From assembly GCF_056746865.1 (NCBI RefSeq), contig NZ_CM163382.1: a DNA stretch of 64,000 nucleotides; one strand, written 5' to 3'. Shown piece by piece: positions 50,501-56,287 of this stretch. Numbering within the stretch: position 1 is the stretch's first letter; each line of letters begins with the position of its first letter. The position numbers were made by a program.

Positions 50501-53500
50501 CGACGATCCTGGCTTCGCGCACCATCGCGCCGCTGTCGCAGATATCCGGCGTGCTCTCGCGCTGGCAGCAGGCGAAAGTGGCGCGCAACGGACTTGATGA
50601 ACTGATGAAGCGCCCGGTGGATCAGCCGGAACACGGCAAACTGGTGCATAAAGCGGTGCTACACGGCAATTATCAGTTCAGCAACGCTATCTTTTATTAC
50701 GATGAAGAAGAGAAAATTGCCGATGTGGCGATTGGCAAACTCAACATTCAGGCCGGAGAGAAAATCGCCATTCTTGGGCGCAACGGCGCGGGTAAATCAA
50801 CGCTACTGCAAATGCTCGCCGGAATGCGTATCGCCCAGCAGGGGCAGGTGCTGCTGGATAACATCAGCATCGGTCAGCTTGATCCGGCGGATCTGCGCCG
50901 CGACATGGGGCTGCTGAGCCAGACCGGGAGACTCTTTTTCGGTTCGCTGCGGGAAAACCTGACGATGGGGATGCCGGAAGCCAGCGATGAAGATATCGAA
51001 CGCGCGTTAACCCTCAGCGGGGCGCTGCCGTTTGTGCAGAAGCAGAAAAACGGCCTCAACTACATGATTCAGGAAGGGGGATTTGGCCTCTCTGGTGGTC
51101 AGCGGCAAACGCTGCTGCTGGCGCGGCTGCTCATCTCTCAACCCAATATCGTGCTGCTCGATGAACCCAGCGCCTCGCTGGACGAAATGGCGGAAGCGCA
51201 TTTAATCGAACAACTGAAACAGTGGATTGGCCATCGCACGCTGATTATCGCCACTCACCGCACGGCGATGCTGCAACTGGTGGACCGCATTATCGTGATG
51301 GATCAGGGGCGGATTGTGATGGATGGCGCGAAAGAGGCCATTTTGCGTGAACAGAGCGAACCCACGGCGCGACGGGTGGTGTTGCAGGAGAAGAATAAGG
51401 GGTCTGCCGCATGAACGGACAACTGCAATACAACCGTGGCCTGACTGAACCCCGCTTGCCGCGTTCGGCGCTGGCGGTACGCGTTACCGCTGTGATGCTG
51501 CTCTGTTTTCTCGGCTGGGCGTGGTACTTCCAGCTTGATGAAGTCACCACCGGCAGCGGCACGGTAGAACCCTCCGGGCGCGAACAGGTGGTGCAGTCGC
51601 TGGAAGGCGGAATTCTGTATCATCTCGACGTCAAGGTTGGCGATATTGTTGAACAGGGCCAGCCACTGGCGCAGCTTAACCGCACCAAAACGGAATCCGA
51701 CGTCCAGGAAGCAATGTCGCGGCTGTACGCGGCGCTGGCAACCTCGGCGCGGCTGCGGGCGGAAGTGAGTAATAAACCGCTGGTCTTCCCTGACGAACTG
51801 AATAAATTCCCCGAACTTATCGAGTCGGAAACGGCGTTGTACAACACTCGCCGCGATGGGCTGAACAAAGCCACCACCGGGCTGACGCAGGGGATTAGCC
51901 TGGTCAACCGCGAACTGGCGATGACCCAGCCGCTGGTAAAACAGGGGGCGGCGAGCAGCGTTGAAGTGCTGCGCCTGCAACGCCAGGCCAATGAACTGGA
52001 AAACAAACTCAGCGACGTGCGCACGCAATACTACGTTCAGGCGCGCGAAGAGTTAGCAAAAGCCAATGCGGAAGTGGAAACCCAGCGTTCGGTGATCCGT
52101 GGACGGGAAGACTCCCTCACCCGGCTCAACTTTACCGCGCCGGTACGTGGCATTGTTCAGGACATTGACGTCACCACGGTTGGCGGCGTTATTGCCCCCG
52201 GTGGTAAACTGATGACCATCGTGCCGCTGGATGAGCAACTGCTGATCGAGGCAAAAATCTCCCCGCGCGATGTGGCGTTTATCCATCCGGGGCAAAAATC
52301 GCTGGTGAAAATAACCGCCTACGATTACTCCATCTACGGCGGCCTGCCGGGAGAAGTGGCGGTGATATCACCAGACACCGTGCAGGATGAAGTACGGCGC
52401 GATGTTTATTACTATCGGGTGTACATTCGCACTTTCAGCAACCATCTGGAAAATAAAAGCAAACAGCAGTTTCCGATATTCCCCGGTATGGTGGCGACGG
52501 TCGATATCCGCACCGGCAAAAAAAGCGTGCTGGATTATCTGTTGAAACCCTTTAACAAAGCACAGGAGGCGTTGCGCGAACGATGAACATTAGCGATGTA
52601 GCAAAAATTACCGGCCTGACCAGCAAAGCCATTCGCTTCTATGAAGAGAAGGGGCTGGTGACGCCGCCGATGCGCAGCGAAAATGGTTATCGAACCTACA
52701 CGCAGCAGCATCTCAACGAACTGACCTTACTGCGCCAGGCGCGCCAGGTGGGCTTTAACCTGGAAGAGAGCGGCGAACTGGTGAATCTGTTTAACGATCC
52801 GCAGCGTCACAGTGCCGACGTCAAACGTCGCACCCTGGAGAAAGTGGCGGAGATCGAGCGACATATCGAAGAACTGCAATCCATGCGCAACCAGCTGTTG
52901 GCGCTGGCGAATGCCTGCCCTGGCGATGACAGCGCCGACTGCCCGATTATCGAAAATCTCTCCGGCTGCTGTCATCATCGGGCGGGGTGAAAATCAGTTA
53001 ATCCCCGTTTGCACCGAAAGAATATGCTGCAAACTTTCTACCATAATGCGCCCCGACTGAAATAAGCCTTCCTGGATTTCGTTGTTAACATTCACAGCGT
53101 GAACCAGGGAGGCTAATAACACCACTTGCAAGAAGGCAAAAATAAACGCACCGATAATCATAATATGCGTCAGGGGGATTTTCCTTTGCTCTTTCATTTT
53201 AAATAACCCACAAACTGACCTTCCTTCATTAAGGCGACTTTTCCCGTGTGGTGATAAACAATGACGTTATAAAGACCTGACTGATAAACAGTGGCATCTT
53301 TATTGTCTTCATCAATTGCACATAATGAATCATTGAGATAAGCAAAGTTCTTACTGCTCATTCTAAAGGTCATGCCAAATCCTTTATAAATAGATTTTTT
53401 AGCGGCCTGGGCATGTTGTGCGGCTTCTGCATTTTTAAATGCCTGCGCTTCTGATGCACTTAAAATAGCCGCCTGACGCTGTTGTTCTGCGAGATAACAG

Positions 53501-56287
53501 GTGTCATGGCTGACGCCCTGCGCCTGGCAATCTGCGATGCGGGAAGTGGGTGAACTACAGCCAGCCAGTAATATAACCGCCAGCAGGGAAAACGATTTAA
53601 TGGAGCTATTCATCATTGTTAACCTTAAATAATGTACGGAAAATTGCGAATAAGAAATTGCTGTTAAAATTAGAACGAATATCCCACGCCGACACCCGCA
53701 CCGAAATCAGATTGTGTATCCGCAGAAATACCTGCTTTAAGTACCGTATGCGTTCCGGCATTAAAAGATGTTCCTACAGACACCGCAGATTCACCGTTGT
53801 ACGTTCCCGCTCCCGCTGACACCATCATCAAGTCACCGGTTTTCACCTGTGGTTGTGAGGCGATAGCGATGGCAGATGCAGTTCCCGCATTGGCTTCTTT
53901 ACGATTGTCCTCAACTTCGTTTTTCAGAGAATCGAAATGGTTATTGAGCGTAGTAATCTGCTGGCTATTATCCGCTACTCGTTTTTGCGTGTTGCTTAAC
54001 TGCTGATGCGTTTGGGTTACGTCTTGTGTCAGGCTGTCAATTTGTTCATGCGTTTGTGTTGAGTCTTGCGCCAGACGCTGAATTTGTTCCCCGTACTGCA
54101 CACTATCGATATGCTGTTGCGTTGCCTGGTTAGTCGCCAGAGTATCTATTTTTTGTTTTTGTTCTGCTGCAGTACGCGCATTCGCATCATTTTGTGCTCT
54201 CAGTCCGGCGTTAACCATCTCTTGATAATGTGCGTTGGTCTGGGCATCGCCAAGTGCGGAAACCGTTTTTTGCGTCGCGTCGATTTGTTTCTGCTGATCG
54301 TCCATTTGTTGCTGCTGGGTGTCAGCTTGTGCCTGTTGCGCATTGGCAGCGGCTGTCTGTCTGGCGTCAATCATGCTCTGATATCGGGCGGCAGTCTGCA
54401 CATCCCCGGTGGCGGCAACGGTTTTCCGGGTTTCGTCGAGTTGTTGCTGCTGGTCAGCAATATCGCTGCGGTTCTGTTCGATATTATTTTTGTTTTCTGT
54501 CACAGCACCGGAAAGTTTGACGCCGTTCATCAGAGCGGTGTTGGCGTTAGCGTTGGCATGGTCAGCCGTTGACTGGGCATGTGCGACATCGCCTTTTATG
54601 TTGGTGACGTCTGACTGCACTGCGGAGACATCATTACGGGTGTCGGCGATGGCGGCTTTATTGGCATCAATATCCGTCTGCGCCACCATAATGGCGTGCT
54701 GCGCGTCATCAGCTTTCATTGAAGCCCAGTTGGCGACATGTTGTGCGTCCTGAATGGCGGTATCCTGCCCGTTGTCGCGGACGATCTGTTTTTGCTCGTT
54801 TGATGCCAACAGTTTCTGCTGGTCGGCAATATCGCTGCGGTTCTGTTCGATGTTGTTTTTGTTTTCTGTCACAGCACCGGAAAGTTTGACGCCGTTCATC
54901 AGAGCGGTGTTGGCGTTAGCGTTGGCATGGTCAGCCGTTGACTGGGCATGTGCGACATCGCCTTTTATGTTGGTGACGTCTGACTGCACTGCGGAGACAT
55001 CATTACGGGTGTCGGTGATGGCGGCTTTGTTGGCATCAATATCCGTCTGCGCCACCGTGATGGCGTGCTGCGCGTCATCAGCTTTCAGTGAAGCCCAGTT
55101 GGCGGCATGTTGTGCGTCCTGAATGGCGGTATCCTGCCCGTTGTCGCGGTCGGTCTGCGCTTGATTGGTTATCGGGTTCAGCGTATTGGCGGGCTGTACG
55201 GGAGAGGCAGCTGTATTTTCCTGAGGTGTCGTTGTCCGGTAATCATGCGCAATCAGATAATTTTGTGCGGCTGCACTATTCCCTGTCCTTTCTAAAAATC
55301 GACCAATTTTCTGATCAATTTCCGATTGCGACATTCCTGGCTGGATTGCCGTTAATTCTGTCGTTGCCGCCTCAACAGTATCACCCGCAAACGCAGATGG
55401 ACTTACCGCGGTAGCAACAACGACAGCCAGTAAAGACAGCTTTACAGTTTTCATGCATTTTTTCTCTTTCAAAGTAAGTCACATATTTGTTTCTATAAGC
55501 AACGTAAAACGTTGTTATAAGAATTAATCTGCGTTGCAATTTGATCGAAATCTACGCCGCCATTTGTGTGATGTAAAGCGCATTTTTGTCTGGTGTAAGC
55601 GTAAACATCACCAATAAGAAACAAAAAATGTTTCTTATATAAATAAAATCGAAAATCATTTTGTGCTCTTTCAATGTAAAAAAGAGTAAAGACTTGTTTT
55701 GATAAGCGAAATAAATTCTGTTTCTGGACTAAACGTGAAGCGGTTCCTGATGTGTGCTAAAATGCGTTTCTTTGATAAATCTCAATTTTTAAGAGGTTTA
55801 CGCCAGGCAGGAAAATTTAAATGAATGAATTTGAGAAGATTTTTAATGAAATGAATCTGGACCGGGCATTGCTACCGATCCTTTTTCGTTCGAACCGGTC
55901 AACAGTGTGGAAATATTTAAGTGGCGATAGTACGGCTCCTGCCTCAGCTATGTCACTGATTATGCTGTTGCAGTTAATCCAGAAACGAAACCCCGATCTG
56001 TTAGCCGAATGGTTAACGCTTTCTGATTTCACCATTCCGCCAGAAGTTTACCTGGACCAGCCTGATTACTGGAAAGGGTGGGTGTATACGCAACACAAGG
56101 TCAATAAAAACGTCCTGGAATATCTAAAAAAACATTATCCGGATGAAGACCAAAAAAACATGAATAAAGGTAGTGACGAGTAATTTGCCAATGCCAGTTA
56201 ATATAGCGGAGGCGGCCTACGATTCGGGCGCAGACTTCCAGGCATGATAAGACGCGCCCGCGCCGCATCAGGCATCAGCGCATAACC

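Follow-up and report, generated by a model that had tools for sequence, protein, structure and literature searches.

Only two families of helpers of trimeric autotransporters (TAAs) are known. SadB of Salmonella and E. coli is a trimeric periplasmic lipoprotein of ∼24 kDa (PDB code 4C47) that combines a coiled coil with a ∼100-residue MATH-like beta-sandwich domain and resides in the inner membrane. It enhances surface display of SadA, a TAA whose gene lies downstream of that of the helper; together with its TAA-independent paralogue YajI, it sets a precedent for a periplasmic TAA partner (PMC3953254). TpgA of Acinetobacter, the dedicated periplasmic partner of AtaA, combines BamE-like and OmpA-like peptidoglycan-binding domains; its gene follows the TAA gene within one operon, and the TAA can be inserted without it (bioRxiv 10.64898/2026.01.22.700529). 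When the neighbors of TAAs possessing both a YadA anchor and a YadA head were clustered in that 2026 preprint, only SadB, TpgA, and DUF2827 emerged, and further helpers were judged unlikely. Here we analyze a 64,000-nucleotide stretch of an E. coli chromosome (contig NZ_CM163382.1 of assembly GCF_056746865.1; hereafter the window), in which a short TAA gene is followed by genes for a 140-aa lipoprotein, z0638, and a 67-aa membrane protein. Lipoproteins of the z0638 family recur behind TAAs that are headless and therefore outside the data set of the 2026 survey, so that the association escaped it. The association appears to be new, as the literature we searched holds no description of it, and it defines a concrete, testable candidate class of TAA partner.

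A lipoprotein and a small membrane protein follow the trimeric autotransporter of O-island 29

The gene pair lies in a four-gene islet between cueR and ybbJ/qmcA, with a G+C content of 37–47% versus 52–60% in the flanks, and is 100% identical to the corresponding sequence of E. coli strain 118UI. The genes of the islet were identified by mapping the lambda-Red primers of a published study (PMC5826968, Suppl. Table S2) onto the genome of E. coli O157:H7; the islet is O-island 29 (OI-29) of O157:H7 strain EDL933. The TAA, the lipoprotein, and the small open reading frame (ORF) all lie on one strand, with z0640 divergent from them across a 348-bp intergenic region (55473–55820; Table 1). In this operon-like layout, the lipoprotein gene and the small ORF would be the distal genes of the TAA operon. 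The first-pass annotation, made from the sequence alone, had described an LLAGC lipoprotein and a single-transmembrane (TM) protein with overlapping stop and start codons, immediately 3' of the TAA. Both statements are borne out; the pair occupies the minus strand, which had been left unstated, and begins 53 nt after the stop codon of the YadA-anchor ORF. This spacer contains an AAGG Shine-Dalgarno sequence and, by consensus scan, no promoter-like site. The end of the TAA gene coincides in part with a weak terminator-like hairpin (53699–53675). The start codon of the small ORF (ATG, 53197–53195) and the stop codon of the lipoprotein gene (TGA, 53196–53194) form a 4-nt overlap, ATGA. An Rfam scan of the operon detected no regulatory RNA.

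The two ORFs are true genes, not fortuitous reading frames. The NCBI Prokaryotic Genome Annotation Pipeline (PGAP) annotates the lipoprotein and the 67-aa ORF in RefSeq genomes; the 67-aa ORF carries no annotation in EDL933. Among 5426 complete E. coli genomes, 1416 contain the 623-bp segment spanning the pair, with an identity of at least 95% in 1298 of them. About a quarter of the complete genomes of this species therefore carry the locus, O157:H7 and many lineages of extraintestinal pathogenic E. coli among them. Both proteins are under purifying selection: in comparisons among E. coli, O157:H7, and E. whittamii, the ratio of nonsynonymous to synonymous polymorphism (pN/pS) is 0.02–0.04 for the lipoprotein and 0.07–0.39 for the small ORF. 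Published RNA-seq data of O157:H7 grown in Dulbecco's modified Eagle's medium (DMEM) give 20, 96, and 44 reads per kilobase per million (RPKM) for z0638, the TAA, and z0640, respectively (PMC5826968, Suppl. Table S3), and values of ∼0 RPKM for all three on HeLa cells (PMC5826968). The three OI-29 genes, active in DMEM, are switched off jointly on HeLa cells. That z0638 mRNA is less abundant than TAA mRNA would be compatible with read-through of a partial terminator.

The lipoprotein recurs behind short, headless autotransporters

We collected genomic contexts from exact-sequence look-ups and from a scan of one genome per Genome Taxonomy Database (GTDB) species, and scanned the loci with our own hidden Markov models of the YadA anchor, the lipoprotein, the small protein, and z0640. 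Among the ∼24 distinct lineages in which a full-length lipoprotein was found, a YadA-anchor gene precedes it on the same strand in 12, and the lipoprotein stands alone (solo) in the other 12. TAA-linked lipoproteins were found in E. coli, E. whittamii, many Pseudocitrobacter-type contigs, P. faecalis, Lelliottia wanjuensis, Enterobacter asburiae (two genomes), E. chuandaensis, an uncultured Enterobacteriaceae genome, Yersinia aleksiciae, and Rahnella rivi; in Pantoea conspicua the linkage is looser. The spacer between the TAA and the lipoprotein measures 53–160 bp in nine of the 12 linked lineages, and the linked TAAs are all short (249–745 aa) and headless. Protein identity falls to 35–47%, and the cassettes occupy varied chromosomal sites (cueR|ybbJ, fetA|qmcA, beside thiM/thiD, next to serine recombinases, and others). 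Because TAAs are only a handful of genes per genome, adjacency would be expected at about 1 in 1000 by chance; adjacency in half of the lineages, in constant order and orientation and spread over Enterobacterales families and insertion sites, therefore appears to be far above chance. A neighbor-joining tree of the lipoprotein places the TAA-linked members in at least four clades and most solo members in one. The first-pass annotation had tied its suggestion of an export or assembly helper to co-occurrence with YadA-anchor genes in other genomes, and the outcome is half positive, with as many lineages solo as linked.

The small ORF has a narrower distribution, being restricted to Escherichia, Shigella, Pseudocitrobacter, and Lelliottia wanjuensis. 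It stands behind a TAA and lipoprotein in all 10 loci in which it was seen, and was seen in no other setting. Its length (64–68 aa), the 4-nt overlap, and a motif at the end of its TM segment are kept at 34–42% identity (Pseudocitrobacter, Lelliottia wanjuensis). Enterobacter-type cassettes have neither the small ORF nor z0640.

The cassettes of P. faecalis (L003, 3801–11936) and L. wanjuensis (L048, 196–7411) each contain two tandem TAAs with an adjoining large serine recombinase, which suggests that these cassettes are carried on an integrative element.

Table 1. Features of the OI-29 locus in the window
Feature	Position	Strand	Evidence or context
cueR	52583-52990	+	flank, convergent with the small ORF
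67-aa small membrane protein gene	52994-53197	-	ORF, sequence; PGAP-annotated
140-aa lipoprotein gene, z0638	53194-53616	-	ORF, sequence; primer mapping
53-nt spacer, TAA stop to lipoprotein start	53617-53669	-	sequence, consensus scan
Trimeric autotransporter (TAA), z0639/ECs0548	53670-55472	-	Pfam YadA_anchor, PHROG adhesin match, repeat analysis, primer mapping
120-aa divergent gene, z0640	55821-56183	+	AlphaFold2 model, Foldseek, locus scans

The published transcription factor GmrA is the autotransporter

The TAA ORF encodes 600 aa from a TTG codon or 594 aa from an ATG at 55454, of which the ATG is the more likely start. The product is short and headless, consisting of a signal peptide (MKTVKLSLLAVVVATAVSPSAFA), a coiled-coil stalk, and a YadA anchor; its last 60 residues match Pfam YadA_anchor (E = 1.4e-11), and the protein matches a PHROG adhesin. 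The stalk contains a 369-bp tandem duplication (54443–55157) whose two copies are 96–97% identical. Across E. coli the passenger is hypervariable, being covered to at least 80% in only 348 of 1382 genomes, and most E. coli genomes share only the last ∼600 nt of the gene, at 83–86% identity. A variable passenger followed by a near-invariant downstream pair is typical of a surface protein that varies while its machinery is conserved. In RefSeq, the PGAP annotation of this TAA in strain 118UI (L001, 7139–8947) begins at an internal start and yields 349 aa with no signal peptide, although the ORF is intact.

An earlier comparative paper named z0639 the "Saa-like protein" ECs0548 (PMC2323221), and the gene has been published as "GmrA," a DNA-binding transcriptional activator of fliA (PMC5826968). 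The deletion, cloning, and FLAG primers of the latter study bracket exactly the TAA ORF in O157:H7, and the cloning primers begin at MKTVNVAL and finish at ...GVGYSF. The published transcription factor GmrA is thus a secreted TAA anchored in the outer membrane, an architecture with which a role in DNA binding is hard to reconcile. Its effect on motility may be indirect, for example via envelope stress. Recognition of GmrA as an adhesin alters the interpretation of the OI-29 motility phenotype and points to z0640 as the real DNA-binding protein.

The AlphaFold2 (AF2) model of z0640 has a predicted local distance difference test (pLDDT) score of 83, and its top Foldseek matches are all helix-turn-helix (HTH) proteins of the XRE type (HigA2, P2 C repressor, Aca2, C-proteins, lambda repressor, and MqsA), with weak E-values of at least 0.26; a match to Pfam MqsA stands at 0.12. 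On this model, z0640 is predicted to be an XRE/HigA2-like HTH protein, and it is the only plausible DNA-binding protein of OI-29. In at least 10 loci, the cassette is accompanied by a neighboring z0640-like gene. Two of these loci (L019, Serratia silvae, and L045) have no TAA, and there the solo lipoprotein lies directly beside the z0640-like gene, as though the TAA had been cut out. z0640 is probably the local regulator of the cassette.

Predicted architecture of the two proteins

Substrates of Lgt and LspA share the lipobox consensus [LVI][ASTVI][GAS]C, and an Asp at position +2 after the lipidated Cys leads to inner-membrane retention, whereas lipoproteins with other +2 residues are transferred to the outer membrane by the Lol pathway. 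The N-terminus of z0638, MMNSSIKSFSLLAVILLAGC|SS..., contains the canonical lipobox L-L-A-G-C ending at Cys20. The signal peptide and lipobox (...AVILLAGC20SS) are kept in every aligned homologue, and lipidation is predicted. The +2 residue is Ser in z0638 and Ser, Thr, or Gln in the family; because it is Asp in no member, sorting to the outer membrane is predicted.

The AF2 model of the lipoprotein, built with a 19-sequence alignment, displays a short helix (residues 23–32), a long Ala/Gln-rich helix (residues 37–71), and a compact 8-stranded beta domain (residues 75–139), with pLDDT values of ∼90 for the beta domain and 60–70 for the helices. Cys30 and Cys40 are invariant, and the model places them so as to staple the helical hairpin. 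The predicted fold thus combines a helical hairpin held by a disulfide with the long Ala/Gln helix and the small beta domain; the mature protein has a mass of 12.5 kDa. Conservation across the family is highest in the N-terminal helical module, not in the beta domain.

A search of 1.84 billion representative sequences yielded 147 members of the lipoprotein family at E≤0.001. The family is small and confined to Enterobacterales. Its two parts also occur separately: the Cys-hairpin N-module alone forms ∼69-aa lipoproteins in Buttiauxella, Atlantibacter, Pseudomonas, and Aeromonas, and the beta domain alone forms secreted proteins of 100–130 aa and follows a TolA_C-like domain in one protein that, from its sequence, is most probably P0136. 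Entries showing this modularity are L023, L025, L027–L031, L033–L035, L037, and L040, proteins P0134, P0150, and P0154, and P0136. In several homologues (L006, 6001–6471; L021; L046, 4001–4492; L049, 4001–4549), the helix and the beta domain are separated by His-rich inserts (HHHH to HHHHHHH). The upstream gene in L046 (2712–3860) encodes, in place of a TAA, a secreted low-complexity protein of 382 aa whose tail is rich in His and Gly. The His-rich inserts and tail may hint at metal binding.

The 67-aa protein has a basic N-terminus (K2, R5, K6), a hydrophobic stretch at ∼12–34, and a polar/amphipathic tail of 33 residues. By the positive-inside rule, it is predicted to adopt an N-in topology with one TM helix and a periplasmic amphipathic C-terminal tail. 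An L-[VI]-H-A-[VI] motif at the end of the TM helix is conserved among the small proteins.

Comparison with known systems

Searches of Pfam, NCBIfam (above cut-off), PHROGs, PADLOC, and PDB sequences returned no match for either protein. Weak matches to TraV, XAC1346, and the Lpp zipper cover the signal peptide and the Ala/Gln helix and were rejected, as were matches of the family profiles to PDB sequences, which are driven by the signal peptide only. A Foldseek search of AFDB50 found only uncharacterized enterobacterial "lipoproteins," with stray labels (RcnB, DUF1471, DUF2845, NfeD-C) on single distant matches. Similarity to the Cys-rich repeats of large Firmicute proteins (P0187, P0226, P0232), seen in the 1.84-billion search, is summed over repeats and of beta-hairpin level, and we do not consider it homology. 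Plasmid matches are chromosome-like segments or proteins with only the C-terminal domain that lack informative neighbors, and a phage origin was rejected because tblastn found no homologue in 50,697 phage records.

In organization, z0638 recalls the known TAA partners. Both z0638 and SadB are small periplasmic lipoproteins of a TAA operon with a lipid anchor, a polar Gln/Ala-rich helix, and a C-terminal beta domain, and both families include autotransporter-independent members (YajI; the solo clade). They differ in that z0638 is about half the mass of SadB, has Ser at +2 with outer-membrane-type sorting, and is encoded downstream of its TAA, a position it shares with TpgA. The radD operon of Fusobacterium nucleatum (rapA-rapB-fad-I-radD) offers a further parallel, as an adhesin is co-transcribed there with a small lipoprotein, which modulates adhesin output, and with very small uncharacterized proteins; however, RadD is a type Va monomeric adhesin of an unrelated organism, the proteins are non-homologous, and the gene order is different.

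The N-terminal region of TraV shares with z0638 a lipobox, two conserved cysteines, and a DTC-x-x-x-EQ-like motif, and one database source calls a homologue "TraV." The TraV match (TIGR02747; E = 8.8e-4, 20 bits versus a cut-off of 44.75) is nonetheless mostly signal peptide with the rest of TraV absent, and no tra genes or conjugation context were found, the context being chromosomal. The match to the Lpp/OprI alanine zipper (NF040598) likewise reached 15.7 bits against a cut-off of 43.

Possible role of the gene pair

Our best explanation, which we put forward tentatively, is that the lipoprotein and the 67-aa protein form a non-essential periplasmic accessory pair of the TAA. z0638 would be exported, lipidated at Cys20, and sorted through its Ser at +2 to the inner leaflet of the outer membrane, with the hairpin proximal to the membrane and the ∼35-residue Ala/Gln helix and beta domain projecting into the periplasm. 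The 67-aa protein would be made by termination-reinitiation at the ATGA overlap and inserted into the inner membrane so that its amphipathic tail lies in the periplasm. The lipoprotein may associate with the TAA anchor at its periplasmic face, or close to it, and stabilize, position, or tune the adhesin; the small protein, a possible addition peculiar to certain lineages, may tether the lipoprotein to the inner membrane or modulate it. The one-strand layout with its promoterless spacer and ATGA overlap, the joint expression of the OI-29 genes, and the scatter of TAA-linked lipoproteins over at least four clades speak for such a pair. Recurrent synteny, together with a variable passenger and a near-invariant pair, fits conserved accessory proteins that serve a variable adhesin, and SadB with its TAA-independent paralogue YajI would be a close conceptual precedent.

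Several observations weigh against a dedicated helper. The solo lipoproteins, which account for half of the full-length homologue lineages, are intact (Klebsiella grimontii, K. aerogenes, Raoultella, Pluralibacter, two Phytobacter species, Erwinia, a Rep3/tail-fibre phage-plasmid-like contig, and others). No residues are conserved only in the TAA-linked lipoproteins, the conserved columns being equal in the solo set, and phage and plasmid TAAs with related anchors lack this lipoprotein. z0638 has no sequence or fold relation to SadB, and Pfam searches of the query and 28 family members found no BamE-like (SmpA_OmlA) or OmpA_C domain; its predicted fold is also unlike that of TpgA. The synteny may in part reflect transfer of the island as a unit. 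The one result on z0638 in the literature searched is that its deletion leaves the motility of O157:H7 unchanged (PMC5826968). Deletion of the TAA ("gmrA"), in contrast, has a motility phenotype, and the TAA alone complements deletion of the whole island and acts in K-12 (PMC5826968); therefore, the pair is not needed for the TAA-dependent motility effect. The export or assembly helper suggested in the first-pass annotation is thus favored by the position of the lipoprotein behind a TAA in 12 of ∼24 lineages and by a small ORF found only there, and disfavored by the 12 solo lineages, the lack of relation to SadB or TpgA, and a motility phenotype that is independent of the pair. A bolder extension of the accessory-pair explanation, which we regard as possible but doubtful, is that z0638-type lipoproteins are a third TAA-dedicated class of periplasmic partner, structurally unrelated to SadB and TpgA and specific to short headless TAAs of Enterobacterales, which together with the 67-aa inner-membrane protein would form an envelope-spanning tether or assembly aid in Escherichia, Pseudocitrobacter, and Lelliottia.

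The many solo homologues with identical conserved residues, and the existence of the C-terminal domain alone as small secreted proteins, would also suit an envelope-protection factor that acts independently of the adhesin: the beta barrel would inhibit a peptidoglycan hydrolase or another enzyme of the host or a competitor, and the gene would ride with the TAA as host-interaction cargo of the same islet. The beta domain may bear a weak fold resemblance to the MliC/PliC lysozyme inhibitors and their relatives (E. coli YdhA/MliC, Salmonella PliC, Neisseria ACP, Brucella PhiA), and MliC is likewise a lipoprotein with outer-membrane-type sorting. Homology was rejected, however, as hhalign returned a probability of 0.8% when YdhA, P. 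aeruginosa MliC, and Brucella PliC were aligned as the target. Furthermore, z0638 has no match to Pfam PF09864, its residues do not place the SGxxY and xKG signatures in register, and the profile search of PDB sequences was empty. MliC has no counterpart of the conserved N-terminal helical module of z0638, and it is this module, rather than the beta domain, that is most strongly conserved. A protection factor leaves the recurrent place behind TAAs unexplained, and we consider it unlikely. Still less probable, in our judgment, is a regulatory or sensing module in which the lipoprotein and the inner-membrane peptide report the state of the adhesin or envelope and feed back on operon expression, possibly via z0640, in the manner of FAD-I or RcsF-type sensors. 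The divergent XRE-type HTH gene, which stays beside the lipoprotein even in the two TAA-less loci, and the co-regulation of the whole island upon host-cell contact agree with such a module, as does the radD operon, where a small lipoprotein and two small proteins act on adhesin expression and FAD-I controls radD transcript levels (PMC7023056). Neither protein has a signaling domain, however, the small protein exposes only ∼11 residues to the cytoplasm, and the Enterobacter-type cassettes do without z0640 and the small ORF.

Overlapping reading frames for a small membrane peptide and a lipoprotein, in a horizontally acquired islet of low G+C content with some homologous cassettes next to serine recombinases, could finally recall a toxin/immunity, phage-exclusion, or lysis-type pair of the spanin or Hok kind. 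This we hold to be very improbable: PHROGs, PADLOC, and the phage records yielded no match or homologue, the gene order and sizes are the reverse of those of the Rz/Rz1 spanins, where the i-spanin gene precedes or embeds that of a short Pro-rich o-spanin lipoprotein, the z0638-type lipoprotein mostly occurs without the peptide, and a chromosomal locus under strong purifying selection is fixed in whole E. coli lineages.

Surroundings of the islet

The stop codon of the small ORF lies 3 nt from that of the convergent cueR (52990–52996). This leaves no room for terminators between the two stops, and the convergent transcripts must therefore overlap. The start of cueR in turn overlaps by 4 nt (52583–52586) the stop of an upstream HlyD-family type I secretion gene. 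Directly upstream of cueR, positions 28471–52586 encode a 6925-aa repetitive Ig-like adhesin (annotated in RefSeq as "BapA-related adhesin SiiEA"), a type I secretion ABC transporter, and the HlyD-family adaptor. With a SiiEA-type adhesin on one side and the TAA on the other, cueR is thus flanked by two different adhesin systems. At the ybbJ side, the island boundary is marked by repetitive extragenic palindromic (REP)-type elements at 56241–56318 and 56341–56407, which score 71.9 bits against Rfam naRNA4/CssrE and so exceed the gathering score.

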